Source of the DNA: Clostridia bacterium
GTDB taxonomy: Bacteria > Bacillota > Clostridia > Oscillospirales > Acutalibacteraceae
NCBI GenBank assembly: GCA_017452785.1
Contig: JAFTLT010000045.1
Span: forward strand, 757 to 64,756
Reading direction: 5' to 3'
Length of the DNA: 64,000 bases
This document shows, piece by piece, positions 2,289 to 56,125 of this stretch. Numbering within the stretch: position 1 is the first letter of the stretch; each line of letters begins with the position of its first letter. The notes under the pieces were generated by a model that saw only the letters and a program-made list of their open reading frames with translations, ran no database searches and was not told the DNA's origin. Made by a program: the position numbers and the translations under genes.

Positions 2289-2924
2289 TTATTTGCTCTG
2301 AGCCTTTTTCTTATTGTCAAAATATTCCTTGAACTGTCTGAAGGTTTCTGGCATATAGCTCAGGAATGCTGCAATTGTCATAATAGCTGAAACAGCAACA
2401 ATAATACCTGTCACCACTGCGGGAAGTTCAAAGCCAACCACTGCATTAAGTGCACCGACTTCGGGGCCGAAAGCGATGATAAGCACCATGCCCACATAGA
2501 AAACAAGGGTTGCTGCCTTGCCCCAGAATTCAGCTGCACCGGGACGGATATTCAAAAGAAGCATAATAAGTCCACCGATAATCATAATAGCTTCTTTGAT
2601 GAGGAAAACAAGGAAAACCCAGCTGAAAGCCTGAATCAATGCGTTTTCAGCACTTCTGAAATCGATTAAAAGCATAATAGCAATTGTTATCTGTGTCAGC
2701 TTATCTGCAACAGGGTCAAGTATCTTGCCAAGGGCGCTGACTTGATTAAACCTTCTGGCAATCTGGCCGTCGAAGGTGTCTGAAAGGCCTGAAAGAGCAA
2801 GCACAAAAACTGCCCAGATTTTTTCATCATTATAAAAGAGAACTGCAAAAACGGGTATGAGTAAAATTCTGATAAGTGATAATAAGTTGGGAATTGTCCA
2901 ACAACCTTTAAATAAATCTTTCAT
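2289..2924 (-). CDS. pgsA: CDP-alcohol phosphatidyltransferase (CDP-diacylglycerol-glycerol-3-phosphate 3-phosphatidyltransferase-like)
   Basis: Family motif DGQIARRFNQVSALGKILDPVADK (D-G-x2-A-R...G-x3-D-x3-D) and a multi-TM profile. Confidence 0.8.
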   Translation of the reverse strand: MKDLFKGCWTIPNLLSLIRILLIPVFAVLFYNDEKIWAVFVLALSGLSDTFDGQIARRFNQVSALGKILDPVADKLTQITIAIMLLIDFRSAENALIQAFSWVFLVFLIKEAIMIIGGLIMLLLNIRPGAAEFWGKAATLVFYVGMVLIIAFGPEVGALNAVVGFELPAVVTGIIVAVSAIMTIAAFLSYMPETFRQFKEYFDNKKKAQSK

Positions 2925-2965
2925 AAGTATATTCCTTTCTTTATTGAACGATTATCATATAGTTT

Positions 2966-3676
2966 TTAAACTGTAGCAGCTCCGCTGACAACAGAAACAA
3001 TATTTTCTGCTGTGGCAATAATAACTGAATTGCTGACTGCTTCGTTGAAGGCTTCATTGCCGATGAATGATGCCACAATGCCGATAAGTGTTGAAATAAT
3101 AACAACAACTATCAGACCTTCGATTGCGCCTAAAACTGCACCGAGAACACTGTTGAACTGCTTGAATGCAGGCAGCTTCTTGATGATTTTGTCAAGGAAT
3201 TTGACAACTATCTTGAGCACAAAACCAAAGGCGATTGCCATGAGCACAAAGAGAATGAACTGCACCACAGCAGTACCCACAGGCTCAACAACATTTGTCA
3301 TTATAGTCTCAAGCAGATTATCTCCGCCGAGGTTAACTTCACTGACCTTGTCAATAATTGCCTGCTTGTCAATGCCCATAAGGTTCATAAGTCCGCCAAG
3401 AGCATCGGGAATAGAGTTTATGATTTCCTCAGCCTGCAAGGCATAGTCCTTTGTGCCGACCTCACCGAGAGCTGAGCCGAGATATGCCTCAGCTGCTTTT
3501 TTAACAAAAATGTTATAGCCCTGAGTTGCGAAGCCCTCTGAAAGGAATCTTGCAAGAATAACCGAAACAATAGTTCCGCATAAATCAAACAAGCTCTTGA
3601 AAAAGCCTTTTTTCATTGAGGTGATTATAACTGTTCCGAAAATAAGTATTAAAAATATATCAACTATATATTCCAT
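2966..3676 (-). CDS. cvpA: CvpA-family integral membrane protein
   Basis: Polytopic membrane protein with a CvpA-like N-terminus MEYIVDIFLILIFGTVIITSMKKGFFKSL. Confidence 0.6.
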   Translation of the reverse strand: MEYIVDIFLILIFGTVIITSMKKGFFKSLFDLCGTIVSVILARFLSEGFATQGYNIFVKKAAEAYLGSALGEVGTKDYALQAEEIINSIPDALGGLMNLMGIDKQAIIDKVSEVNLGGDNLLETIMTNVVEPVGTAVVQFILFVLMAIAFGFVLKIVVKFLDKIIKKLPAFKQFNSVLGAVLGAIEGLIVVVIISTLIGIVASFIGNEAFNEAVSNSVIIATAENIVSVVSGAATV

Positions 3677-32216: not shown

Positions 32217-32301
32217 GCGGATGTGGTGGAATTGGCAGACACGCAAGATTTAGGTTCTTGTACCGTAAGGTGTGCAGGTTCAAGTCCTGTTATCCGCACC
32301 A
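32217..32301 (+). tRNA. tRNA-Leu (anticodon UAG), type II with a long variable arm and encoded CCA
   Basis: Manual cloverleaf: acceptor GCGGATG/TATCCGC, anticodon stem CAAGA/TCTTG with loop TTTAGGT, variable arm TACCGTAAGGTGT, T-arm GCAGG-TTCAAGT-CCTGT, then ACCA. Confidence 0.92.
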
Positions 32302-33375: not shown

Positions 33376-33395
33376 ATTCAGCAAGTGAATAGAAA

Positions 33396-33677
33396 CATTT
33401 AAGGTGTCGGGTGATTTTTCTCTCCCGGTGAAAATGGGAAGCAGGGTGCAAGTCCCTCACGAACTCGTCGCTGTAATGAAGAAGTCTTATTCCACGCATT
33501 AAGCTGCAGTCATTGGTGAAGGCCGAGAAGACGGAACAAGGTGATGATAGCTAAGTCAGAAGACCTGCCTTAAATGATTTGTGGGACCGCGAGTAATCGG
33601 TTTAAGCAAACGACATCCTTCTTTTAGTCGTAAGTGCCACGAGGTTTTTATGCACTTAAGACTAAAAGAAAGGATGT
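33396..33677 (+). promoter_or_regulatory. Cobalamin (B12) riboswitch with an SD-sequestering expression platform
   Basis: P1 stem CATTTAAGG (33396-33404) pairs with CCTTAAATG (33568-33576). The core is GGTGAAAATGGGAAGCAGGGTGCAAGTCCCT and the B12 box is AGTCAGAAGACCTGCC. A long hairpin at 33613-33677 pairs ACATCCTTCTTTTAGTC with GACTAAAAGAAAGGATGT, which covers the SD. Confidence 0.85.
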
Positions 33678-34083
33678 GAAAAGTGTGAAAAGCAAGAAAA
33701 TTTTAGGCGTAGTCATTCTGGCGGTGCTTATAGTTGCTATGGCGTTTACTTTCAATGCGTTCAAAGAAAAGCCCGTTGAGGGTGAAAAGAACATAACAAT
33801 TGAAGTTGTTGCCGAAGATAAAACCTCCACTGTCTATGAGGTTGACACCGATGCCGAATATCTGCTTGGTGCTATGGAAGATGCTGACGGTCTCACCTTT
33901 GAGGGTGAAGACGGTCCTTACGGAATGTCTGTCAGCACTGTTAACGGTGTGCGTGCAGATTATACTCTTGACGGTGCATATTGGGCATTTTTCGTTGGTG
34001 AAGAATACTGCAACTACGGTGTATCACAGCAGCCCGTTGAAGACGGTGACAGCTTTAAGATTGTTTACACATTAGCTGAATGA
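33676..34083 (+). CDS. DUF4430-domain (transcobalamin-like) secreted or lipid-anchored protein
   Basis: N-terminal TM/signal segment KKILGVVILAVLIVAMAF and a DUF4430-like C-terminus (YWAFFVGEEYCNYGVSQQPVEDGDSFKIVY). It is under the B12 riboswitch. The start is GTG 33676 or 33685; the track's longer start lies inside the riboswitch platform. Confidence 0.7.
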   Translation: MKSVKSKKILGVVILAVLIVAMAFTFNAFKEKPVEGEKNITIEVVAEDKTSTVYEVDTDAEYLLGAMEDADGLTFEGEDGPYGMSVSTVNGVRADYTLDGAYWAFFVGEEYCNYGVSQQPVEDGDSFKIVYTLAE

Positions 34084-34610
34084 TAAGCCAAAAAGGCAAA
34101 AACGCTGCCTTTGACGTAGCTTTGGTTGCGCTTATGGTGGCTGTTATTGAGGTTTGCAAATTCGCAATGATAGGTCTTCCGAATATAAGCCTGACAGCTT
34201 TCTGGCTCGTGCTTTTTTCAAAGCATTTCGGGAATAAGGTATATTATGTTGTGCCTGTTTTTACCCTGCTGGAAGGCATTGTTTTCGGGTTTAACCTGTG
34301 GTGGATAAGCTATCTTTATGCGTGGCCGGTGCTCGTGCTTATAACAAGAATTTTCAGGCATAATGACAGCGCAGTTATATGGGCAGTCATTTCAGGAATT
34401 TTTGGCCTATCCTTCGGTGCACTGTGCGCTATCCCCTACATTTTTACGGCAGTGGATTTAAAAAGCGGCCTTGCCTACGCTGTAAGCTGGTGGATTTCGG
34501 GAATACCTTGGGACATCACACACTGCGTCGGTAACTTCGTTTTAATGATGCTGCTTTATAAGCCCTTGGGAAGCGTAATGCAGAATTTGCAAAAACAAAT
34601 CAAACATTGA
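34080..34610 (+). CDS. ECF transporter S (substrate-capture) component. The riboswitch context suggests a corrinoid substrate.
   Basis: 176 aa with about 5-6 TM segments. Has an ATGA overlap with the upstream gene. A shared ecfA1A2T module lies at 5.7-8.2 kb. Confidence 0.6.
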   Translation: MISQKGKNAAFDVALVALMVAVIEVCKFAMIGLPNISLTAFWLVLFSKHFGNKVYYVVPVFTLLEGIVFGFNLWWISYLYAWPVLVLITRIFRHNDSAVIWAVISGIFGLSFGALCAIPYIFTAVDLKSGLAYAVSWWISGIPWDITHCVGNFVLMMLLYKPLGSVMQNLQKQIKH

Positions 34611-36536: not shown

Positions 36537-36668
36537 TTATTCGTCTTCGGGAAGGGGTGCCATCCAGTCAGGATTAACTTCACCGCCCATAAGCTCGCAA
36601 AGGTATTCATAGAGCTTATTCCATAAATCCCAGAAAATTTCTTCAAATGTTGCAAATAATTTTTCCAT
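36537..36668 (-). CDS. Unannotated 43-aa aromatic, acidic helical peptide (a member of the small-peptide family)
   Basis: Sequence MEKLFATFEEIFWDLWNKLYEYLCELMGGEVNPDWMAPLPEDE. GGAGGA lies 8 nt before the ATG, a promoter is at 36699-36727, and a terminator follows the stop. Below the track's 60-aa cutoff. Confidence 0.6.
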   Translation of the reverse strand: MEKLFATFEEIFWDLWNKLYEYLCELMGGEVNPDWMAPLPEDE

Positions 36669-38432: not shown

Positions 38433-40385
38433 TCAGCGAAAAAAATCCATTACAAAATCAATGAGCTTAACTGCAATGTTATAAATTGTTGCAGCTGTGT
38501 TTCTGATGCCAAGCTTTTTAAGCAGGCTGCTTGCCTTTTCGCCAATAACCTCGTCGAGCTCCTTAGGCATATCAGCGTTAACATATGGCTCGCTTTCGTT
38601 GTACTCTGCCGCTTTACCGTTCATAAGAGTGAAATCAAAAGTTCTGTCACTGACAGGAGTGATTGTCTTATTCATAAATGAAATATTTATTTCAAAATTC
38701 TTTTTGCTTATTTCAGGAATTTCGCCTTCAAATGAAACTTCCTTGCTTTCACCGGGTGCAAGTGTGAAGGGTTCAAAGATGAAATCAAGACCGAGACCTC
38801 TTGCATTGATTGACATAACAGTTATATCATTTATAGCTGAGCAGTTGGTCACAACAAGAGTCTTATCAGCTGATGAGAGATAACCCTCTGTGCTCTTATT
38901 AAAGGCAGCATGCACACCGTGTGAGGGGTTCGTTGTCTCGTGGAACTGAGGATAACCTGCCATTGTGTGAGCGTCAAAGCTCTTGCTGCTGAGAAGCAGT
39001 GTGAACATAAGATTTTTTGTGAAGGGATCACTGATGGTCATTCCGTGATAATAGTTTTCAATAAACCATGTGTGGTGAGGAATATATGCAGTTGAGGCAT
39101 CCACTGTCATGCAGGGTGACACCTGATAATAGCCTGTGTCAACCTTCTGAGTATAGCCGTCAGCAAAACGCTTGCCAAATGGTGCTACAACTGCACCCGT
39201 TGCACCTGCTGTGGGGATAATAGCATCACTTGTTACTTCACCGCCACTGACGCTCTTTGCGTTATAGCCTGCCATAATATAGATGTTTGTGCCGATATCC
39301 TGAGCCTTTTTGAAGCCCTTGCCGTAGTAGTTTTCACCGTCAGGTGACATAATCTCATAGTGCATATAGTCGCTTTTTGCTATAAGATCTGCACTTTCAA
39401 CCGGGTCAAGAAGCTCAGCCTTAAGCTCTTCATAATGCTCAAGGGGAATGAAATCCCAAAGACTCTGCCAATACTGCACCACGCCGATAATCTGAGGCAC
39501 AAGCTCACCCACAATTGCATCAACAAAGCCTAACTGTTCAGCTTCAAGAAGGATATGATAGTCCTCCTCCCACTTCATGCCGTGCTCTATATATGTGAGC
39601 AGACCGTATTCGTCAAGCTTGCCGTTATTGCTCATAAGGTCATAAGCAAGGCTTGCACCGCCAAGAGCAGGAACTGTAAGCACTGCGTTATTTACTTTGC
39701 CCTCGTGACCATAAAGTGTGAGATATGTGCCTGTTGTCTGTCCGCCGTGTGAAACAGCAAGAAGATTAACCTTATCAACCTTATCCTTTTCAGCCTTGCC
39801 TTCGTTATGATGAGCAATTACATCATCAATAAATGCTCTCATTCTTCCGGCAATTTCAACGGGACCCTTACGGAAATCGCAGGTGAAAAGATAAAGGTTT
39901 TCGGCACCGATTTCTTCAGAGAGAATTGTCATCATTTCTGTTTCTTCGTTATGCTCACCATTCGGATAATTCTTTTGAATGTTTGCCCAGTTTGTTTCTT
40001 CGGCAGTGTTCAGATAGGTTGACAGCTCTTTTATACTTGAACCATCGGGATTGCAGCGAAGATTATCAAACAGCCAGTTAAAAGCTATGCCTACAACCTC
40101 AACTGCCGGTGAAATATCACCTGTTGCCACAAACTTTGCAGCGGCAGCAATAAGCTCTTCTTTGTATTCCTCAAGAGCCATCATAATCTGATCGCCTGTG
40201 TTGCCCCATGCGTGAATTTCCTCACCTGTTTCTTCATCAAAAAGACGGAGTGATGACGAGCTGTAGCCTGAAATCATGATAACAGGATATTTGTTGCCCT
40301 CATCTGCATAAACACCTGCAAAAGCAGCTGTGCTAAGTGAGAAGCACATAATAATTACAAGTAAAAGTGAAATAAGCTTTTTCAA
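38433..40385 (-). CDS. Secreted alpha/beta-hydrolase (lipase-like) with a C-terminal beta-rich extension. Downstream copy (2 of 2) of the tandem pair.
   Basis: Signal peptide, nucleophile elbow LLAVSHGGQTTG, and 650 aa collinear with the upstream paralog. Confidence 0.65.
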   Translation of the reverse strand: MKKLISLLLVIIMCFSLSTAAFAGVYADEGNKYPVIMISGYSSSSLRLFDEETGEEIHAWGNTGDQIMMALEEYKEELIAAAAKFVATGDISPAVEVVGIAFNWLFDNLRCNPDGSSIKELSTYLNTAEETNWANIQKNYPNGEHNEETEMMTILSEEIGAENLYLFTCDFRKGPVEIAGRMRAFIDDVIAHHNEGKAEKDKVDKVNLLAVSHGGQTTGTYLTLYGHEGKVNNAVLTVPALGGASLAYDLMSNNGKLDEYGLLTYIEHGMKWEEDYHILLEAEQLGFVDAIVGELVPQIIGVVQYWQSLWDFIPLEHYEELKAELLDPVESADLIAKSDYMHYEIMSPDGENYYGKGFKKAQDIGTNIYIMAGYNAKSVSGGEVTSDAIIPTAGATGAVVAPFGKRFADGYTQKVDTGYYQVSPCMTVDASTAYIPHHTWFIENYYHGMTISDPFTKNLMFTLLLSSKSFDAHTMAGYPQFHETTNPSHGVHAAFNKSTEGYLSSADKTLVVTNCSAINDITVMSINARGLGLDFIFEPFTLAPGESKEVSFEGEIPEISKKNFEINISFMNKTITPVSDRTFDFTLMNGKAAEYNESEPYVNADMPKELDEVIGEKASSLLKKLGIRNTAATIYNIAVKLIDFVMDFFR

Positions 40386-40397
40386 TTTGTTCTCTCC

Positions 40398-42362
40398 TTA
40401 TCTGTAAACAATCTTTGTCATCAGGTGAAGCACCTGAGCAAAAACATTGAATATATTTGAAGCAATTGCCTTTACACCTGTTTTTTCAAGCAGCGTGTTA
40501 GCTTCCTTCGGCAAAACATTGTCTATGTTTTTAGGATAATCTGCACCCACAAGCGGTTCATTTTCGTTGTACTGTGCCGCTTTGCCGTTCATCACAGTGA
40601 AGTCGAAGGTTCTTTCGCACACGGGAGTAACCTTGTTATTGAGATAGCTCACGGCAAGCTCAATATTTTTAAGGCTAACCTCAGGAATATCACCTTTGAT
40701 TTCAACTGACTTGCTCTCACCCGGTTTCAGGATAAAAGGCAGGAAGAAGAAATCAAAATCTGCACCGTAAACGCTGACTGAGCTGACAGTGATAACCGAA
40801 TCACAAGAGATATTTGTTATCACAAGCTCTTTATCCTGTGAGGAAACGAAGCCCTCTTTGCTACTATCAAATGCAGCAAAAACAACATGAGCAGGGTTTG
40901 TTGTGGCGTGGAACTGAGGATATTCTTTGAAAGAATTGACCGTGTAGCCCTCACCGTCTGTCAGAAGAAGCTTGCAGGCAAGTGAGAATGTGAAATCATC
41001 CTTATAGGTCATTCCGTGGTGGAAGTTTTCAATATACCATGTGCGCTCAGGCAGATATCCTGTTGATGCGTCAACTGTCATTGAGGGTGACACCTGATAA
41101 AAGCCTGTGTCAACCTTCTGAGTATATCCGTCACTAAAACGCTTGCCGTAAGGTGCAGCAACTGCCCCTGTGGCGCCCTCTATAGGTATAATAGAGTCAG
41201 AGCTTACAGGCATACCTGAAACAATCTGCACATCATATCCTGCTAAAATATAGATGTTTGTGCCGACTTCTTCAGCCTTTTTAAAGCCCTTGGCATAATA
41301 ATGTTCGCCTTCAGGTGACATAATTTCATAGTGAACGAAATCGCTTTGTGCAATAAGACCTGCATTCTTCACCGGGTCAAGGTTTTTCTCTTTCATTGCC
41401 TCATAGTATTCAATCGGCACAAAATCCCAAAGACTGCCCCAACAACCTAATATAGGCATACATTCCGGCAATAAAGCTTCTACCAATTCATCAAGGAAGC
41501 CTAACTGATTAGCCTGAAAGAAAAGATCAAGATCTTCTTCAATAATAAAGCCATGCTGCAAAAACTGCAGAAGCTCCGCATCATTAAAGTCGGCGTCACC
41601 GTTAAAAGCATCATAAGCTATGCCTGCACCACCAAGGGCAGGAACAGTGAGAATAGCATTATTTACCTTACCCTCATGGCCGTAAAGTGTAAGATAAGTG
41701 CCTGTAACCTGACCACCGTGGGAAAGGGCATAGATGTTAACTTTGTCAATCTTGTCCTTTTGTGCTCTGCCCTCGTTATGATATTCAATTACATCATCGA
41801 TATATGCTCTGAGAGAATTTGCAATTTCAACAGCACCCATACGGAAGTCACATGTAAAAACATAGGTGTTTTCCTTGCCTATTCTTGCACCGATGTCATC
41901 CATTATCTCTTTTTCTGCCTGATAGTCGCCTTCGGGGTACTTCTCGGCAAGATTTGCATAGTTGGTCTCTTCGGGAGTATGTACGTAATTATATACAGGT
42001 ACCGAAGGTGTGCCGTCATCATTACACTTCATATCAGCAAAAATTCTTCTGAAGCCGGCACCAAGTGTTGCTGCAAGCTCTGTTGCGTCACCTGTTGCAA
42101 AGAACCTTGCAGCTTGGGCAAGTATCTTTTCCAGCATACCGTCCTGAGCGCCTGCGGAAATCTGTCCGACGGCATCGCCCCAGACCATAACCTTTTCGCC
42201 CGTTACCTCGTCAATTTTATAATATGACGATGAAGTATAACCCGGCACCATAATTACGGGATACTTTGTCAGCTCTGCGTTTTCCTTTTCAGCAGCAAAA
42301 GCTATGGGGAAAGCACTGAAAACCAACAATAAGCAAAGTAACAACACTGTTAGTTTTTTCAT
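40398..42362 (-). CDS. Secreted alpha/beta-hydrolase (lipase-like). Upstream copy (1 of 2) of the tandem pair.
   Basis: Signal peptide, IYALSHGGQVTG, and long blocks identical to 38433-40385 (LTLYGHEGKVNNA.LTVPALGGA, YTQKVDTG.YQVSP.MTVDAST). Only a 12-nt gap separates it from the next gene. Confidence 0.65.
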   Translation of the reverse strand: MKKLTVLLLCLLLVFSAFPIAFAAEKENAELTKYPVIMVPGYTSSSYYKIDEVTGEKVMVWGDAVGQISAGAQDGMLEKILAQAARFFATGDATELAATLGAGFRRIFADMKCNDDGTPSVPVYNYVHTPEETNYANLAEKYPEGDYQAEKEIMDDIGARIGKENTYVFTCDFRMGAVEIANSLRAYIDDVIEYHNEGRAQKDKIDKVNIYALSHGGQVTGTYLTLYGHEGKVNNAILTVPALGGAGIAYDAFNGDADFNDAELLQFLQHGFIIEEDLDLFFQANQLGFLDELVEALLPECMPILGCWGSLWDFVPIEYYEAMKEKNLDPVKNAGLIAQSDFVHYEIMSPEGEHYYAKGFKKAEEVGTNIYILAGYDVQIVSGMPVSSDSIIPIEGATGAVAAPYGKRFSDGYTQKVDTGFYQVSPSMTVDASTGYLPERTWYIENFHHGMTYKDDFTFSLACKLLLTDGEGYTVNSFKEYPQFHATTNPAHVVFAAFDSSKEGFVSSQDKELVITNISCDSVITVSSVSVYGADFDFFFLPFILKPGESKSVEIKGDIPEVSLKNIELAVSYLNNKVTPVCERTFDFTVMNGKAAQYNENEPLVGADYPKNIDNVLPKEANTLLEKTGVKAIASNIFNVFAQVLHLMTKIVYR

Positions 42363-44499: not shown

Positions 44500-44530
44500 A
44501 AAAAAGCAGCCATCTGCAGGTGCAGACGGC
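44500..44530 (-). terminator. Intrinsic terminator after the 26-aa mini-gene
   Basis: Minus-strand GCCGTCTGCA..TGCAGATGGC followed by TGCTTTTTT. Confidence 0.65.
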
Positions 44531-44573
44531 CGAAATTATTATCCTTTATTATAAATATCCGAGCATAAATCAG

Positions 44574-44654
44574 ATTAAGCAAAGAGAGCCTTAATCCACT
44601 CGATGAGCTGCATAAGATGGTCGAGACCAAACATTGTAACTATTTTTTCCCACA
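44574..44654 (-). CDS. Unannotated 26-aa leaderless amphipathic peptide
   Basis: Sequence MWEKIVTMFGLDHLMQLIEWIKALFA. GGAGGA lies 7 nt before the ATG, with a promoter at 44709-44737 and a terminator at 44500-44530. Confidence 0.55.
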
Positions 44655-44708
44655 TATTAATTTCCTCCTTTACTGCTTATTTAAGGGATGTTTTTCCTTA
44701 CAACTGAC

Positions 44709-44737
44709 ATTGTATATTAAACTTCACTATTTGTCAA
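44709..44737 (-). promoter_or_regulatory. Sigma-A promoter of the 26-aa mini-gene
   Basis: Minus strand: TTGACA, 17-nt spacer, TACAAT. Confidence 0.55.
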
Positions 44738-44850: not shown

Positions 44851-44880
44851 AAAAAACAAAACCCGCCACTAGGGCAGGCT
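44851..44880 (-). terminator. Intrinsic terminator after the 36-aa mini-gene
   Basis: Minus-strand CCTGCC-ctagt-GGCGGG followed by TTTTGTTTTTT. Confidence 0.65.
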
Positions 44881-44913
44881 TTGTCTATTAAACAATTGTT
44901 TAATCGCGATAAA

Positions 44914-45024
44914 TTATTCAGCGTCTTTAAGGTTGCCGTTTTCATCCTTTTCGATGCCAAAGATTGCAAGAAGCTTGTAGATGAATTCCCAAAGCATTGC
45001 GTACATATCTTCAAATACCTGCAT
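44914..45024 (-). CDS. Unannotated 36-aa leaderless aromatic amphipathic peptide
   Basis: Sequence MQVFEDMYAMLWEFIYKLLAIFGIEKDENGNLKDAE. GGAGGA lies 8 nt before the ATG at 45024. An in-frame ATG at 45039 lies inside the SD region, so it is less likely. Confidence 0.6.
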   Translation of the reverse strand: MQVFEDMYAMLWEFIYKLLAIFGIEKDENGNLKDAE

Positions 45025-45077: not shown

Positions 45078-45106
45078 ATTATATATCAGCCATAGATAAA
45101 TGTCAA
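45078..45106 (-). promoter_or_regulatory. Sigma-A promoter of the 36-aa mini-gene
   Basis: Minus strand: TTGACA, 17-nt spacer, TATAAT, with an AT-rich UP-like region shared with the next cassette. Confidence 0.65.
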
Positions 45107-45205: not shown

Positions 45206-45298
45206 TTATTCTGCATCCTTAAAGTATGCGAATGCCTTGTAAAGATATTCCCAGATTGCCTGCCATACTTCTTCAAACTTTGCGAAAAATTCAGCCAT
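45206..45298 (-). CDS. Unannotated 30-aa leaderless aromatic amphipathic peptide
   Basis: Sequence MAEFFAKFEEVWQAIWEYLYKAFAYFKDAE. GGAGGA lies 8 nt before the ATG, with a promoter at 45352-45380 and a terminator at 45145-45170. Confidence 0.6.
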   Translation of the reverse strand: MAEFFAKFEEVWQAIWEYLYKAFAYFKDAE

Positions 45299-45351: not shown

Positions 45352-45380
45352 ATTATATATCAGCATAATATAAAAGTCAA
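45352..45380 (-). promoter_or_regulatory. Sigma-A promoter of the 30-aa mini-gene
   Basis: Minus strand: TTGACT, 17-nt spacer, TATAAT. Confidence 0.65.
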
Positions 45381-45485: not shown

Positions 45486-45510
45486 AAAAAGGCTACCCTT
45501 GCGGATAGCC
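45486..45510 (-). terminator. Intrinsic terminator after the Cys-rich protein gene
   Basis: Minus-strand GGCTATCC-gcaa-GGGTAGCC followed by TTTTT. Confidence 0.7.
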
Positions 45511-45524
45511 TTTTAGCTTTTCAA

Positions 45525-46010
45525 TTACTGGATTGAACCGAGAACCTCGTCAAGTCTGAGGAATTCGAAGATGCTGTTGAAGAAATTATCAAATACATCT
45601 GAAATTCTCTTAAGAATCTTCTGGAAGCCACTGATGAAATCATCCTGTGCGTCTTCTACTGCATCCTCATCAACAGGTCCGAAAATGGAACCGCTGCCAG
45701 TGTTTTCATTGTTGGGGTCACAGCAATCGCAACCACAGCCGCAGGGGAAAATGCCTGTGCAATATGCGCAGCAGAGTGAACCGTCATATGTACCGTCTGC
45801 ATTGCCGTCTTTAGCACATGATGTGAGATAAGACTTATCAATGTTGGGGCAAAGAACACAGCAGTGACATGAACCTAAAGGTGCAGCTTTGTGATCGTCA
45901 CATGTGCATTTGTCAGTAACAACAGGCTCCTCAACTACAACTGCAAAAGCCATTGTGCCCATTGCAAAAACCATAGCAACCGCTAAAAGAATTGAAATTA
46001 CTTTTTTCAT
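45525..46010 (-). CDS. Secreted Cys-rich protein (15 Cys in 63 aa) with an acidic linker and a C-terminal aromatic amphipathic helix
   Basis: Signal peptide MKKVISILLAVAMVFAMGTMAFA. The core is CTCDDHKAAPLGSCHCCVLCP...LCCAYCTGIFPCGCGCDCC and the tail is FISGFQKILKRISDVFDNFFNSIFEFLRLDEVLGSIQ. It has its own TTGACT-17-TATAAT promoter. Confidence 0.7.
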   Translation of the reverse strand: MKKVISILLAVAMVFAMGTMAFAVVVEEPVVTDKCTCDDHKAAPLGSCHCCVLCPNIDKSYLTSCAKDGNADGTYDGSLCCAYCTGIFPCGCGCDCCDPNNENTGSGSIFGPVDEDAVEDAQDDFISGFQKILKRISDVFDNFFNSIFEFLRLDEVLGSIQ

Positions 46011-46097
46011 TGGAATCTCCTCCTAAATTTTGGCGGAAAGTATAAGCCGCCTTTATAGATACATTATAGTAAATAAAACAGCAAAAGTCAAGACGCA

Positions 46098-46140: not shown

Positions 46141-48054
46141 TTAAACTCTAACCGTATTACTGTATCCGCCATAGCCGGTTACACCGTCATCCTTACGGAG
46201 TGTTCTTATTCTGAAGCGATATGTACCGTCAGCTTTTAGACCCTCAACTGTGTATGAAAGAGTATCACTGTCAACAGTCTGAACCTTGATAAGCTCATCG
46301 CCTGAAACTCTGTAGATAACATAATGGGTTGCACCGCTTACTTTATCCCATGACAGCTTGACCTTGCTGCCTGTCTGCTTTGCTGTCAGTTCTGCCGCCT
46401 TAGGGCCTGCAACACCTGTTATATATGAAGGCTCACTGCTATAATATTCCGAGCCTACCTTTGCAGTGGCATGAACCTTGAATTTATAGCTTCTGCCTGC
46501 CGTGAGCTTGAAGGTATATGAGGTTTCATCTGTAACGGCAACCTTTTTATAGCTTTCGCTCTCACTGTCATATCTGTAAATAGAGTACTGTGTTGCTCCG
46601 CTGACCTTTTTCCACGCAAGACCCAATTTGCCGGAGGTGGAATAATTCTGCTTAAGAGCTGTAACCTTATCGGGTACAACAGTAATTGTCACACTGCTTT
46701 TAACTTCACCCTTATCGGCAGCCGTGCAGGTGATTTTAACTGTGCCGTACTTTTTAGCTGTCACCTTACCCTTTGAGTTGACCACTGCAACAGAGGTGTC
46801 GGAGCTTTTCCATGTGAGAGTGCCGTCGGTTACATCGGCAGGCTCAACAGCAGCCTTGATCACCGCACTGTCACCCTTGGCAATTTTTGCAGGAGCATCA
46901 AGCTCAACGGCTTTTGCGAAAACAATTTCCTCAGCCTCAAGAACCTCAAAGTGATAGTCTTCACTTGCTATTTTCCAACCTGAAACCAATGAATTTGCAG
47001 CATATACTCTTGCAGAATATCTGCCTGCTTCATCGATTGTAATTGTCTTTGCTCTTTTATTTTTGCTGACGGTATATTTCTGAACTATGTCGCCGTCTTC
47101 ATTATAAATATAAAGCCAATATTTGCCTGCGCCGCAGTATTCACGCCATGAAAGAGGAATTTCTTCGCCCACAGTGTATATCTCAGTTTTATTTTCAAAG
47201 TCAGGCTCTTCAATTTTTCCGCCTAAATATTCAGCGTAGTTGAGAGCACACCAGCCAACAGTGTTTCCAAAAAGGATTTTGCCCCAAAGGTATTCACCGT
47301 CATCATATTTGTCATAAACCTTAAACTTGGTTCCGTCATATATTTTATCAACAACATTTGAATCTGTTGTGTGCTCTGCTCTGACATTGAGAGTTGCACC
47401 AACCATTTTCCAATCCTCGTGAGGATCGTTTTTTGCTATGTCGGTTTCTTCCGTGTCTTCAGGCTTAATTGAATCAGTGTTTTTATAGAAATAAAGGTCT
47501 GTGTTTTTTCTGTTGTTGCCCTCAAGTCTGTAAACATAGCTGAAGCCCTGAATATCTGATATATCCATAACGCCCCAACGAATCTGACATCTGCCGACCC
47601 AGTTGCAGTCCGTGAAAGAAATCTTATTGCCGCTGACACCTGTAACACAAAGTGAGTGACCGTTCCAGCGGTAGCGGATAATATCACCGACACGCAGTGA
47701 AGAAGCCTTAAGGCTTGTCACCTTTACGAAATTATTTCTGGGCATTATGCCGGTGATTTCATAAGCTATTTTATGGGCGTACCCCATACACTGAATTGCA
47801 TTGTCGAAATTATTGCAGTCACACGATTTATTCCATGCACAGCTGCCATGACTTGCGCAGGGTGTGGATGTTACACCGTCAGGGTTGTTTTTGCCTTTAT
47901 CAACGTTATTCCAATATTTGCCGTTCGGGAATTTTTCAACTAATGAAGCTAATATAGTGAGAGTGTCGTCAGCAGCATTACCGACAAAGCTGACACTCAT
48001 CGCAGGCATAATAACCAAAAGGGCAAGAAGCAGGCATAAAAGTTTTTTAAACAT
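46141..48054 (-). CDS. Secreted multidomain protein: N-terminal papain-fold Cys/His hydrolase-like domain (CHAP/NlpC-P60-like), SH3b, Big_2 and two Fn3 domains
   Basis: Signal peptide. Candidate nucleophile context AIQCMGYAHKIA with a downstream NGHSLCV. An SH3b-like block (LNVRAEHTTDSNVVDKIYDGTKFKV...GWCALNY), a Big_2 block (LTWKSSDTSVAVVNSKGKVTAKKYG), and two W.KVSGAT.Y.IYR Fn3 modules. Confidence 0.6.
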   Translation of the reverse strand: MFKKLLCLLLALLVIMPAMSVSFVGNAADDTLTILASLVEKFPNGKYWNNVDKGKNNPDGVTSTPCASHGSCAWNKSCDCNNFDNAIQCMGYAHKIAYEITGIMPRNNFVKVTSLKASSLRVGDIIRYRWNGHSLCVTGVSGNKISFTDCNWVGRCQIRWGVMDISDIQGFSYVYRLEGNNRKNTDLYFYKNTDSIKPEDTEETDIAKNDPHEDWKMVGATLNVRAEHTTDSNVVDKIYDGTKFKVYDKYDDGEYLWGKILFGNTVGWCALNYAEYLGGKIEEPDFENKTEIYTVGEEIPLSWREYCGAGKYWLYIYNEDGDIVQKYTVSKNKRAKTITIDEAGRYSARVYAANSLVSGWKIASEDYHFEVLEAEEIVFAKAVELDAPAKIAKGDSAVIKAAVEPADVTDGTLTWKSSDTSVAVVNSKGKVTAKKYGTVKITCTAADKGEVKSSVTITVVPDKVTALKQNYSTSGKLGLAWKKVSGATQYSIYRYDSESESYKKVAVTDETSYTFKLTAGRSYKFKVHATAKVGSEYYSSEPSYITGVAGPKAAELTAKQTGSKVKLSWDKVSGATHYVIYRVSGDELIKVQTVDSDTLSYTVEGLKADGTYRFRIRTLRKDDGVTGYGGYSNTVRV

Positions 48055-49389: not shown

Positions 49390-51072
49390 TTAATCAAGGC
49401 GGTCAATGCTTACATATTCAATTTTCCATTGCCCTTTCACGGGGTCTTTTTCTTTGCTGTAATCACAGTAAACAGCAGTGTTTTCGCTATAGAGTATACC
49501 TACGCTTCTCAATTCACCCTTTTTAAGAGGTACTGCTTGACTGAGATGCTGTTTTAACCTTCTGAGTCTTTCATCTTTAATCTTAAGGCAAGAGGGCAGA
49601 ATATCAGAATTATTTGTAGAAAGTCTGTCGAGCAGCATAAGGTCACGAAGTCTGATTTTGTCAACTCCCCTGATAAGAGAGAAGTACTCATAAGCAAGGC
49701 AGGTGTATTTATCCAGAGCAATGCTCCCCTTTTCGTCTTTGCTTATAAGAAATTCACCAAAACCGAGAAACAGCTCATAAGGCGGCATAAATCTTGTCAC
49801 ATAGCTGAGGGTACGTGGAAACCTTGCGCTGTTATATAAGCGTTCAAGCTCATTTTCACATATATGCAAAAGAGAAAGCTCATCTTTAGTTATATAAGGT
49901 GTTGATACAACCTCATAGGGCGGCTCACTGCTATAGGTACAGGGGAACTCCTCTTTGTTTTCGGCCATAGGTGAACCGTGAAGCACCTTAAGAAAGCCCA
50001 GCTGAAGCATATGGGCTCCTATTTTATAGGCTCTGTCAAAACCTGCAACAAAGCTGTCATAGCCCTCTTCGGGAAGGCCTGCAATAAGGTCGATATGCAC
50101 ATGGCAATTGCCGTATGAAAGAAGTCTCTTGACATTTTTTTCGACTAAATCTGTGTTGGTCTTTCGGTTTATTTTTTTGAGAGTGTTTTCATTAAAGGAC
50201 TGAATTCCCACCTCAAACTGCACTGCCCCATTCGGCAGAGTAGCAATAACCTCAAAGAGCTCCTCAGTGAGAATATCAGCAGCAATTTCAAAATGGAAAC
50301 AGACTCCCGACGGGATTTTTCTGCCGTATTCTTCTTTTATAAAAGATAGTATTTCACCGGCACGCTTGCTGTTGCAGTTAAAGGTTCTGTCAACAAACTT
50401 GATTGTTTTTGCGCCCTTTGAAGCCAGAATAAGCATTTCATTTTTAACTCTGTCAAGAGGCAGAAATCTCACCTTACCACACCTGCCCGAAAGACAAAAG
50501 GCGCAGCTGAAAGGGCAACCTCTGCTGCTTTCAATATAGGCAATTCTTGTGCCGAGGCTCTCAAAATATTCCTCACAGTAAGGCGACACTGTTTTTTCAA
50601 AATCGGCAGGCTCACCGTCTGAGATAACCAAAGTGTCACCCTCACGAAAGGAAACACCACTGATTAAAGGCTTATTATCATTTAAAAGTGCCTTAAGCAG
50701 TAACGGCATTGTCATTTCACCCTCACCGCTGAGCACATAGTCGACAAAGGAATTTTCTTTAAGTATTTTTTTCTGACAGTAAGATACCTCAGGACCTCCA
50801 AGAGCAATTACAACTCCCTTACTTTTGAGCATGTTGCAAAGCTCAAGGGTCTTTTTAATATTCCATATATAGCAGGAAAAGGAAACAAAATCAGGTTTTT
50901 CCCTTATAATTCTGTCATAAACTGCCTTTATATCTTCATTCACCGTACCCTCAAGCACCTTGATTTCACAAGGCAGCTTTTCATTTTTGCAGGCTGTGAA
51001 AAGGCAGCAAGGCGCAAGGGATGCGTGTATGTATTTTGAATTGAGAGTGCAGAAAAGAGCTTTGCTTATCAT
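49390..51072 (-). CDS. B12-binding-domain radical SAM protein (DUF4080 C-terminal type)
   Basis: An N-terminal Rossmann-like cobalamin-binding region and the rSAM triad SSRGCPFSCAFCLS; 560 aa. Confidence 0.8.
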   Translation of the reverse strand: MISKALFCTLNSKYIHASLAPCCLFTACKNEKLPCEIKVLEGTVNEDIKAVYDRIIREKPDFVSFSCYIWNIKKTLELCNMLKSKGVVIALGGPEVSYCQKKILKENSFVDYVLSGEGEMTMPLLLKALLNDNKPLISGVSFREGDTLVISDGEPADFEKTVSPYCEEYFESLGTRIAYIESSRGCPFSCAFCLSGRCGKVRFLPLDRVKNEMLILASKGAKTIKFVDRTFNCNSKRAGEILSFIKEEYGRKIPSGVCFHFEIAADILTEELFEVIATLPNGAVQFEVGIQSFNENTLKKINRKTNTDLVEKNVKRLLSYGNCHVHIDLIAGLPEEGYDSFVAGFDRAYKIGAHMLQLGFLKVLHGSPMAENKEEFPCTYSSEPPYEVVSTPYITKDELSLLHICENELERLYNSARFPRTLSYVTRFMPPYELFLGFGEFLISKDEKGSIALDKYTCLAYEYFSLIRGVDKIRLRDLMLLDRLSTNNSDILPSCLKIKDERLRRLKQHLSQAVPLKKGELRSVGILYSENTAVYCDYSKEKDPVKGQWKIEYVSIDRLD

Positions 51073-55251: not shown

Positions 55252-55614
55252 TCAGGCAGCTGCAGGAGCTGTTGCTGCATCGGGAGCTGTTGTTTCTTCC
55301 TCAGCGGAAGAATCGGAATTTGCAATCATTTCGGCAATCTGATGAATAATTTCATCTGTGTCAATAACACCAAGTGCCATTGCAATTTTAACAATAACTT
55401 TAACGAGCTTGAGAGCAATTTTTGCAATCTTTGACGCAGGGCCTAACGTCCACACGGGAAGGTCAAGAAGCCAATCAAGTGCACCTGCTTCTTCGTCACT
55501 TTCCAAAACAGCTGTTGTTTCTTCGGGTGCTGCTGTTTCTTCAGCGGCAAAAGCAACTGTTGCAACTGAGAATGTCATAATCACTGCGAGAATTAATGCT
55601 AAAAACTTTTTCAT
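55252..55614 (-). CDS. Small secreted protein: signal peptide, acidic stretch, Lys-rich amphipathic helix, and a T/A/P/E tail. Downstream copy (2 of 2) of the pair.
   Basis: MKKFLALILAVIMTFSVATVAFAAE...ALDWLLDLPVWTLGPASKIAKIALKLVKVIVKIAMALGVIDTDE...EEETTAPDAATAPAAA. ATG at 55614 follows GGAGGT. Confidence 0.6.
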   Translation of the reverse strand: MKKFLALILAVIMTFSVATVAFAAEETAAPEETTAVLESDEEAGALDWLLDLPVWTLGPASKIAKIALKLVKVIVKIAMALGVIDTDEIIHQIAEMIANSDSSAEEETTAPDAATAPAAA

Positions 55615-55714: not shown

Positions 55715-56125
55715 TTATGCAGCAGCTGCGGCTGTTGTTGCTTCGGGAGCTGTTGTTTCTTCTTCAGCAGCATCATTATTGCCAACGCCAAGGCCGTCAA
55801 CGAAATCAAGGATGATAGCGATGCCGTCTGCAGGATCAATGCCGAAAGCACTACAGATCTTGAAATAAACCTTTACGAGCTTAAGAGCAATCTTTGCAAT
55901 TTTGAATGCAGGCTTAAGGCTCTCAGCGGGGAGATCAAGAATCCATGCATAGTCGCCAAGCATTTCGTCTAATTCATCAGTAACGCTGCCCTCTTCTTCG
56001 CCTTCAGCGGGAGCTGTTGTTGTTCCCTCTTCAGGAGCAACTGTTGTGTCCTCTGCAGCAAAAGCAACTGTAGCAACTGAGAAAGTCATGATAAGTGCAA
56101 GAACTAATGCTAAAAACTTTTTCAT
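55715..56125 (-). CDS. Small secreted protein, paralog of 55252-55614. Upstream copy (1 of 2) of the pair.
   Basis: A near-identical signal peptide, then YAWILDLPAESLKPAFKIAKIALKLVKVYFKICSAFGIDPADG...EEETTAPEATTAAAAA. It has its own TTGACA-17-TATACT promoter. Confidence 0.6.
   Translation of the reverse strand: MKKFLALVLALIMTFSVATVAFAAEDTTVAPEEGTTTAPAEGEEEGSVTDELDEMLGDYAWILDLPAESLKPAFKIAKIALKLVKVYFKICSAFGIDPADGIAIILDFVDGLGVGNNDAAEEETTAPEATTAAAAA

Follow-up and report, generated by a model that had tools for sequence, protein, structure and literature searches.

Layout of the Cys-rich gene and its mini-genes

The stretch analyzed here (the window) comprises 64,000 nucleotides of contig JAFTLT010000045.1 from a metagenome-assembled genome (MAG) of a Clostridia bacterium. 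Its minus strand carries a gene for a secreted, Cys-rich protein (hereafter, the Cys protein), directly followed by three mini-genes (A, B, and C1) for short aromatic peptides; a fourth mini-gene lies detached from these. The open reading frame (ORF) at 45525..46010 encodes exactly the 161-amino-acid (aa) sequence quoted in the original prediction, and it was confirmed to be a real gene, not a chance product. A ribosome-binding site (GGAGGAG) is present 5′ of it, and the encoded protein, MBQ7296126.1, is annotated as “hypothetical protein IJW86_10685 [Clostridia bacterium].” The features of the locus are as follows; each mini-gene was recognized with a ribosome-binding site, a promoter, and a terminator.

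46063..46091, minus strand: promoter of the Cys gene, TTGACT-17-TATAAT (11/12 match to the sigma-70-type consensus)
45525..46010, minus strand: gene for the Cys-rich secreted protein (161 aa; MBQ7296126.1)
45942..46010, minus strand: signal peptide, residues 1-23, MKKVISILLAVAMVFAMGTMAFA (inspection, family-wide conservation, and a helix at 2-21 in the AlphaFold2 [AF2] model)
45720..45908, minus strand: Cys-rich core, residues 35-97, 63 aa with 15 Cys and the conserved His40 (alignments and AF2)
45645..45719, minus strand: acidic variable linker, residues 98-122 (variable alignment columns; AF2 predicted local distance difference test [pLDDT] <50)
45528..45644, minus strand: C-terminal amphipathic aromatic helix (the tail), residues 123-161 (AF2 helix 121-151; hydrophobic moment 0.76)
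45486..45510, minus strand: terminator 3′ of the Cys gene, a hairpin with a T-run, read from the sequence as ggctatcc-gcaa-gggtagcc-ttttt
45352..45380, minus strand: promoter of mini-gene A, TTGACT-17-TATAAT (11/12 match)
45206..45298, minus strand: mini-gene A, 30 aa, MAEFFAKFEEVWQAIWEYLYKAFAYFKDAE
45078..45106, minus strand: promoter of mini-gene B, TTGACA-17-TATAAT (12/12 match)
44914..45024, minus strand: mini-gene B, 36 aa, MQVFEDMYAMLWEFIYKLLAIFGIEKDENGNLKDAE
44854..44886, minus strand: terminator 3′ of mini-gene B
44709..44737, minus strand: promoter of mini-gene C1, TTGACA-17-TACAAT (11/12 match)
44575..44655, minus strand: mini-gene C1, 26 aa, MWEKIVTMFGLDHLMQLIEWIKALFA
44507..44532, minus strand: terminator 3′ of mini-gene C1
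36537..36668, minus strand: detached fourth mini-gene, 43 aa, MEKLFATFEEIFWDLWNKLYEYLCELMGGEVNPDWMAPLPEDE, beside a tRNA_edit/YbaK gene

In agreement with the predicted clear signal peptide ending in AFA, the N-terminus of the Cys protein (MKKVISILLAVAMVFAMGTMAFA followed by VV) displays, by inspection, the n-h-c/AxA layout of a Sec/signal peptidase I (SPase I) signal peptide, and the features of an SPase I substrate (MKK-VISILLAVAMVFAMGTM-AFA before V) are conserved in all homologs. A semiconserved P-[IV]-[IL]-x-x-[DE]-x-Q motif stands immediately before the tail helix in the otherwise variable linker, and the protein ends in ...LDEVLGSIQ, with no LPXTG motif. Inspection of the sequence also led us to reject readings of the Cys protein as a lipoprotein (no lipobox), a Tat substrate (no twin-arginine motif), a heme-binding protein (no CxxCH motif), or a sporulation coat protein. 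A ribosomally synthesized and posttranslationally modified peptide of the SCIFF/ranthipeptide type was discarded because the protein has a Sec signal peptide, not a leader, and because the radical-SAM neighbor is not conserved: the B12/radical-SAM gene at 49390..51072 is confined to the window-type context and missing from all others.

A word-indexed search of 5.8 billion proteins yielded 38 full-length homolog clusters at 90% identity, none of which has a functional name (the few named ones read “hypothetical protein”), and an exhaustive hidden Markov model (HMM) search of 1.84 billion representatives yielded 58 at 50% identity. Scanning the GTDB species genomes, we found 63 species loci of the Cys gene, all carried by MAGs that are labeled Acutalibacteraceae, Oscillospiraceae, or Clostridia and come from ruminant and other animal guts. 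The Cys-protein family is confined to Acutalibacteraceae-type gut MAGs.

The core does contain the 15 Cys in 63 residues (residues 35-97) that had been counted in it. All 15 Cys and His40 are invariant or nearly so in family alignments, and among the 63 family members, the number of Cys is exactly 15 in 39 and odd in 41. No match was found in Pfam and NCBIfam for the full protein or for its core or tail taken alone, in Pfam at E ≤ 10 for the isolated core, in a PDB sequence profile search with the Cys protein, or in Foldseek searches of its model against PDB and BFVD. Thus, none of these searches gave a confident assignment of the core to a known domain, the result that had been named as evidence to the contrary, consistent with the earlier statement that no characterized family has this architecture. 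With 29 sequences, AF2 reached a pLDDT of 49.7 and modeled two helices only, while with 70 sequences, the overall pLDDT was 65.1, with a core of medium confidence (65 to 79) and sparse regular secondary structure and with a long helix at 121-151.

Two tandem cores precede the same tail in P0056 and three in P0051; P0080 and P0086 consist of a signal peptide, one core, and then a BspA-type leucine-rich repeat (LRR) region (LRR_5), and in a few relatives, the core is present but the tail is not. The occurrence of one to three core copies before the same tail and of the core on BspA-type LRR surface proteins supports an autonomous extracellular domain. An odd Cys count and a conserved His40 fit metal sites better than a complete set of disulfides. 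Together with its knuckles (CxxC and CxxCxG) and the fact that the protein is a predicted Sec export product of a strict anaerobe, these features suggest that the core probably binds metal, with several putative Zn-type sites rather than full disulfide bonding. The terms “metallothionein-like” and “disulfide-knot-like” given to the core in the original prediction can be kept only as a resemblance. There is no metallothionein family match, a signal peptide is present, and the core has aromatic residues.

Other Cys-flanked helices were seen among the relatives of the Cys protein. The C-termini of the LRR proteins P0080 and P0086 read CSCNCHK-GF..WKIINFFQKxF-..CxCGxxH and are unlike the tail motif of the Cys protein; the similarity of the tail to this “CxCxCHK-aromatic helix-CxCGxxH” motif is not significant, and we claim no homology. 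P0091 and P0094 have similar units of a helix plus CxC/CxFC..H, and together these may represent a broader class of aromatic helices that are flanked by Cys and carried by secreted proteins of Clostridia. The tail helix (…KAVFDKFFDSIFEFLRIDDFFG) was also found in frame with an ATP-binding cassette (ABC) transporter ATPase (L063, 3114-3818) and joined to an unrelated, unannotated 267-aa N-terminally truncated protein fragment (P0090). Neither fusion is likely to be a real architecture; chimeric assembly, a frameshift, or truncation at the Cys gene probably accounts for both.

The four mini-genes of the window are missing from the NCBI protein set of the source MAG, and peptide B is recorded solely in Logan and ENA gene calls. 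Only these four and ribosomal protein L32 were found as small ORFs with a ribosome-binding site in the intergenic space of the window. The second ATG is the true start of both peptide A (MAEFF...) and peptide B (MQVFED...), and the peptide starts “MEDTIM” and “MEETIM” reported earlier had to be corrected, as these prefixes result from in-frame reading of the GGAGGA ribosome-binding sites. In all four peptide families, differences at the third codon position exceed those at the first and second, which argues that the mini-genes are coding and under purifying selection. Rfam and tRNA scans of 44.3 to 46.2 kb returned no RNA element; hence, the mini-gene region is not a known noncoding RNA.

Promoters matching TTGACA-N16-18-TATAAT in at least 10 of 12 positions precede 111 of 128 mini-genes (13% for shuffled upstream sequence), and a match of at least 11/12 precedes 62 of the 63 Cys genes of the related loci; a hairpin with a T-run lies 3′ of 81 of the 128 mini-genes. 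The Cys gene and the mini-genes are each an independent, strongly promoted unit, the mini-genes being monocistronic, and a strong promoter for each mini-gene suggests that the peptides are probably made in large amounts. The peptides are leaderless and 26 to 53 aa long (median, 37.5 aa), with ~17% aromatic residues and almost no member containing Cys; a net negative charge is found in 98% of the 128 peptides (median, −4). Their hydrophobic moment (0.50 versus 0.33 for shuffles) is consistent with the helical form predicted for them. Type A comes first downstream of the Cys gene, type B second, and C1 or C2 third, with further types in some lineages and with paralog expansions to 11 mini-genes in locus L042 and 6 to 7 in loci L022 and L028. 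Types A and B share homology (hhalign, 96.8%), and the fourth peptide of the window is A-like by HMM. No mini-peptide had a Pfam or NCBIfam match at E ≤ 10; a type-B profile matched 175 unnamed clusters of 31 to 46 aa in public data, and a scan of metagenome contigs with the type-B peptide alignment gave no match.

Locus L074 has two mini-genes of another type (MADVVTTAAVVEEEPAKDPITAWFEEFIAHIKAVITKLLLKLGIKVEL; 2880-3026 and 3234-3383, 48 to 49 aa) beside P0051, the relative with three Cys domains. In their products, a basic helix follows an N-terminal extension of acidic character; both genes lie upstream, not downstream, of the Cys gene.

Kinship and linkage of the tail and the free peptides

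According to the original prediction, the tail of the Cys protein carries the motif of the free peptides, and this holds for some of the peptide types but not for others. The tail aligned to the profile of the C2 type with an hhalign probability of 93% (E = 3.4e-7, 24 columns), pairing FQ..ILKRISDVFDxFFxxIFEFLR with ETYxxGIVDWFKRLFTIIxEFL. The score of 31.9 compares with a maximum of 17.1 in 150 column shuffles and with 19.0 for the reversed alignment. On the basis of this profile comparison, the tail is homologous to the C2 mini-peptide type and belongs to the mini-peptide superfamily. C2 peptides are found in other genomes and are not present in the window, where significant similarity of the tail is limited to the fourth peptide (36537..36668; Smith-Waterman score of 39, maximum of 37 in 2,000 shuffles). 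Smith-Waterman shuffle tests with the other peptides of the window gave P values of 0.04 for A, 0.06 for B, and 0.5 for C1, and the part of the claim that concerns these three types did not reach significance.

The tail is also the most conserved non-Cys part of the Cys protein, polar positions included: F129, Q130, F140, D141, F144, I147, F148, E149, F150, and L151 are invariant or nearly so. This conservation argues that the tail is a functional module and not noise, as had been proposed, with oligomerization, membrane binding, and docking as candidate functions. The constancy of Q130, D141, and E149 is more suggestive of a specific partner than of nonspecific lipid binding.

In 44 of 64 loci (the 63 species loci and the window), the Cys gene is immediately followed by one to 11 mini-genes on its own strand. 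Five more loci have no downstream sequence to check, and mini-genes are present in about three quarters of the loci with available downstream sequence. In the 63 related loci, the 20 kb surrounding the Cys gene contained no other match to HMMs of the A, B, C1, and C2 types, and the Cys gene was found directly upstream in five of seven independently sampled type-B peptide matches. These data bear out the predicted link between the Cys-rich module and the peptide family. The expected co-occurrence is seen, as adjacency, in the 44 loci and is not seen for thirteen Cys loci (within 10 kb) and at least two peptide arrays (see below); the link is strong, not obligatory.

The surrounding genes vary, in at least five arrangements, and the Cys gene and the mini-genes alone stay together. 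One arrangement reads uvrC-HTH-c1-CYS-minis-ybaK-pcrA (HTH, helix-turn-helix; c1, see below), the window's own reads spmA-spmB-c4-CYS-minis-M20 peptidase, and a third reads sigma/anti-sigma-CYS-minis-dnaJ-dnaK. The flanking genes are housekeeping genes (uvrC, pcrA, dnaK/J, ybaK, and spmAB).

Neighboring secreted proteins and other genes

Three further genes for secreted proteins were considered in the window.

55715..56125, minus strand: c1a, 136 aa, with a signal peptide, an acidic linker, and a basic amphipathic helix
55252..55620, minus strand: c1b, a paralog of c1a, 120 aa from the ATG at 55614
46141..48054, minus strand: c4, 637 aa, with SH3_3, Big_2, and fn3 domains and a Cys/His N-terminal domain

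The tandem paralogs c1a and c1b share the motif GDYAWILDLP and the basic amphipathic helix KIAKIALKLVKVY (in the c1 family, GEYDWILDLPFWTVKPALKIAKIALKLVKVYVKL...), and both come right after uvrC and the HTH gene in the window. With the c1 pair placed there and the fourth peptide beside ybaK, the window looks like a split version of the uvrC-HTH-c1-CYS-minis-ybaK arrangement. In public data, the c1 family comprises 184 clusters; a member is found no more than 10 kb from the Cys gene in 28 loci, and in ~20 loci it is the immediate upstream neighbor of that gene. No homology of c1 to the mini-peptides or the tail was detectable. The Cys protein, the mini-peptides, and c1, three unannotated or hypothetical families, form a conserved neighborhood. 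One c1 cluster is named “acid shock protein” in an NCBI record, which looks like an artifact of signal-peptide-level similarity to Asr.

The c4 gene recurs as a neighbor in 18 loci and is absent from most contexts. Its N-terminal Cys/His domain (~190 residues) has no significant Pfam or PDB sequence match. At the equivalent position in L074 (1636-2616), a protein with Peptidase_C39_2 and SH3_3 domains hints at a secreted cysteine peptidase. Two tandem paralogous proteins of ~650 aa with no Pfam match are encoded at 38433-40385 and 40398-42362 (minus strand); in a relative from L002, the N-terminus looks like a signal peptide and a lipase-like GYTSS motif is present, and the family (cluster 11) recurs downstream of the Cys locus in several genomes. 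The plus strand of the window also has a tRNA-Leu (TAG) gene at 32217-32301 and a cobalamin riboswitch at 33385-33586 (Rfam RF00174, 91.8 bits), upstream of the ORFs at 33634-34610.

Possible roles and comparison with known systems

We tentatively read the locus as a clade-specific system at the cell envelope in which an amphipathic helix is used in a tethered and a free form and the Cys core is an extracellular metal-binding domain, a reading that we consider possible. The tethered form would be exported by Sec as the 161-aa protein and would lose its signal peptide, placing outside the cell a compact domain with 15 Cys and one or two His, a flexible acidic linker, and the strongly amphipathic aromatic helix at the C-terminus. 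The free form would be the leaderless acidic aromatic peptides of 26 to 53 aa, probably abundant, from the downstream monocistrons, and these would be exported in the manner of phenol-soluble modulins (PSMs), which need no signal peptide. At the outer face of the membrane or at the wall, the free peptides might co-assemble with the tethered helix or be nucleated and anchored by it, and c1, as a second secreted helix protein, may join the assembly. Such an arrangement could be likened to the wall-anchored long chaplins that organize short chaplins.

A number of observations weigh against this reading. The free peptides have no signal peptide, and no ABC transporter or other exporter is conserved within 10 kb in the 63 loci. 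Compared with the profiles of A, B, and C1, the types that adjoin it in the window, the tail gave hhalign probabilities of <3%. Thirteen Cys loci that are free of mini-genes within 10 kb have a fully conserved tail, so the helix is not dependent on adjacent free peptides. Peptide arrays also occur apart from the Cys gene: in L066, its place is taken by a 72-aa protein with a signal peptide, an acidic linker, and an aromatic helix, without a Cys core, and in L064, neither the Cys gene nor anything comparable adjoins the array. The pLDDT of the core is too low for inferring Cys geometry, and all carriers of the Cys gene are uncultured MAGs. A more ambitious proposal, which we hold to be unlikely, is a new envelope system across a gut-Clostridia family in which a multimetal Cys protein would anchor a hetero-assembly of the abundant peptides A, B, and C with c1 into a helical surface layer or surfactant. 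If true, it would involve signal-peptide-independent peptide export, three new protein families, and one new Cys-rich fold.

The lack of signal peptides and of a locally encoded exporter, the thirteen conserved tails without mini-genes, and the peptide arrays without a Cys gene, as well as the high hydrophobic moments, would also agree with a parallel use of one membrane-binding helix without physical interaction. The tail would then lie on the outer leaflet, and the peptides would remain inside at the inner leaflet or act as small regulators, their adjacency being due to duplication of the tail-coding segment and shared regulation instead of co-assembly. We regard this explanation as doubtful, though to be taken seriously: anionic peptides (median charge, −4) bind anionic bacterial membranes poorly, the invariant polar residues of the tail exceed the needs of a generic lipid anchor, and the A-B-C order and same-strand adjacency across at least five contexts argue for a functional unit. 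It is quite unlikely that the locus encodes a multipeptide leaderless bacteriocin or cytolysin, with the Cys protein and c1 as accessory or immunity factors. Sets of 2 to 11 leaderless helical peptides of 26 to 53 aa, rich in Trp and Phe, and the paralog expansions in L042, L022, and L028 would be expected of such a locus, and the mini-peptides may resemble in style the I/L-D/E-W-I/L motifs of leaderless bacteriocins. However, 98% of the peptides are anionic, in contrast to the strong positive charge of known leaderless bacteriocins; the surroundings of the Cys gene and mini-genes show no conserved ABC transporter, immunity, or bPH-type genes; bacteriocin matches in Pfam and NCBIfam are zero even at E ≤ 10; and the housekeeping setting and fixed gene order over ~63 species differ from the sporadic, strain-specific occurrence of bacteriocin loci.

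Two other explanations start from the tail itself. The Cys protein could be a proprotein carrier from which a secreted protease, c4 being one candidate, cleaves the tail helix, freeing an extracellular peptide of the mini-peptide family. The disordered, variable linker with its semiconserved motif before the helix, the presence of c4 near 18 loci, and the Peptidase_C39_2 domain at the c4-equivalent position in L074 (a candidate only, its homology to c4 being putative) are compatible with such a cleavage, but the N-terminal domain of c4 in the window has no significant Pfam or PDB match and c4 is missing from most contexts, which makes this explanation distinctly improbable. Finally, the resemblance of the tail to the peptides might be compositional only and the Cys protein functionally unrelated to the mini-genes. 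The low profile probabilities for A, B, and C1 (<3%) and the pairwise P values of 0.04 to 0.5 would be in line with this; yet the tail-C2 profile score is far above the 150 column shuffles and above the reversed control, the similarity to the fourth peptide exceeds all 2,000 shuffles, and synteny is strict across changing contexts. A merely compositional resemblance is therefore very improbable and is largely refuted.

Judging from their conservation under purifying selection and their near-consensus promoters in dozens of gut species, the mini-genes likely have abundant products that are hidden from standard annotation; they are typical of the small ORFs that annotation pipelines miss. Among anaerobic Firmicutes, the Cys-rich domain is a candidate for a new fold that serves outside the cell in metal binding or in a structural role. 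It is unusual for a tethered helix to have free, leaderless peptides as homologs, and this raises a testable question, that of co-assembly between peptides and tail. The system could bear on the surface chemistry, colonization, or interbacterial interactions of uncultured rumen and hindgut Acutalibacteraceae.

We found no description of the Cys-protein/mini-peptide family in the literature, and the Cys protein and the peptides are outside any described family. The core shares with metallothioneins and zinc-ribbon proteins a very high Cys density, with CxC, CC, and CxxC clusters; its CxxCxG motif (C81-A-Y-C84-T-G) resembles a DnaJ-type zinc knuckle, and its odd Cys count and conserved His would fit metal ligation. 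Metallothioneins, however, are cytosolic and have neither aromatic residues nor a signal peptide, and the core has no Pfam, PDB, or Foldseek match. Leaderless bacteriocins such as aureocin A70, garvicin KS, and enterocin L50 are likewise encoded as two to four leaderless, Trp-rich helical peptides of 30 to 44 aa side by side. Unlike the mini-peptides, which are anionic, core-genome encoded, and clade-wide, with no transporter nearby, these bacteriocins are strongly cationic, come with transporter and immunity genes, and are often plasmid-borne or sporadic.

By analogy, the peptide arrays resemble in kind the known leaderless amphipathic peptide systems, among them the staphylococcal PSMs and delta-toxin. 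These are amphipathic alpha-helical peptides of 20 to 45 aa, often rich in aromatic residues and without a signal peptide, encoded by several paralogs side by side in the core genome and apparently set for high expression. The mini-peptides, too, are short and amphipathic, lack a signal peptide, and are predicted to be helical from the first residues; PSM-beta peptides share their net negative charge, and the hydrophobic-face pattern of type A (MAEFFAKFEEVW...) resembles that of PSM-alpha3 (MEFVAKLFKFF...). On the other hand, there is no sequence homology (no Pfam PSM or delta-lysin match for the mini-peptides at E ≤ 10), the mini-genes are monocistronic and not in an operon, the peptides are much more acidic, and no Pmt-like ABC exporter is conserved within 10 kb of the Cys gene in the 63 loci. 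Nor are PSMs known to be accompanied by a Sec-exported Cys-rich protein bearing a homologous helix.

In the chaplins of Streptomyces (long ChpA-C and short ChpD-H), one small domain likewise occurs both free and fused to a surface-tethered protein, and the tethered form is thought to organize the assembly of the free form into a surface-active layer. Chaplins differ in being beta-rich amyloid formers that all have signal peptides, whereas here the shared unit is an alpha-helix whose free forms have no leader. Anchoring of long chaplins relies on LPXTG and sortase, and the Cys protein has no recognizable wall anchor; there is also no homology, with no chaplin Pfam match for the Cys protein or the mini-peptides. 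New at this locus are the Sec-exported Cys-rich protein with a helix homologous to mini-peptides, the markedly acidic character of these peptides, and the layout of one promoter per mini-gene, conserved over ~60 species.

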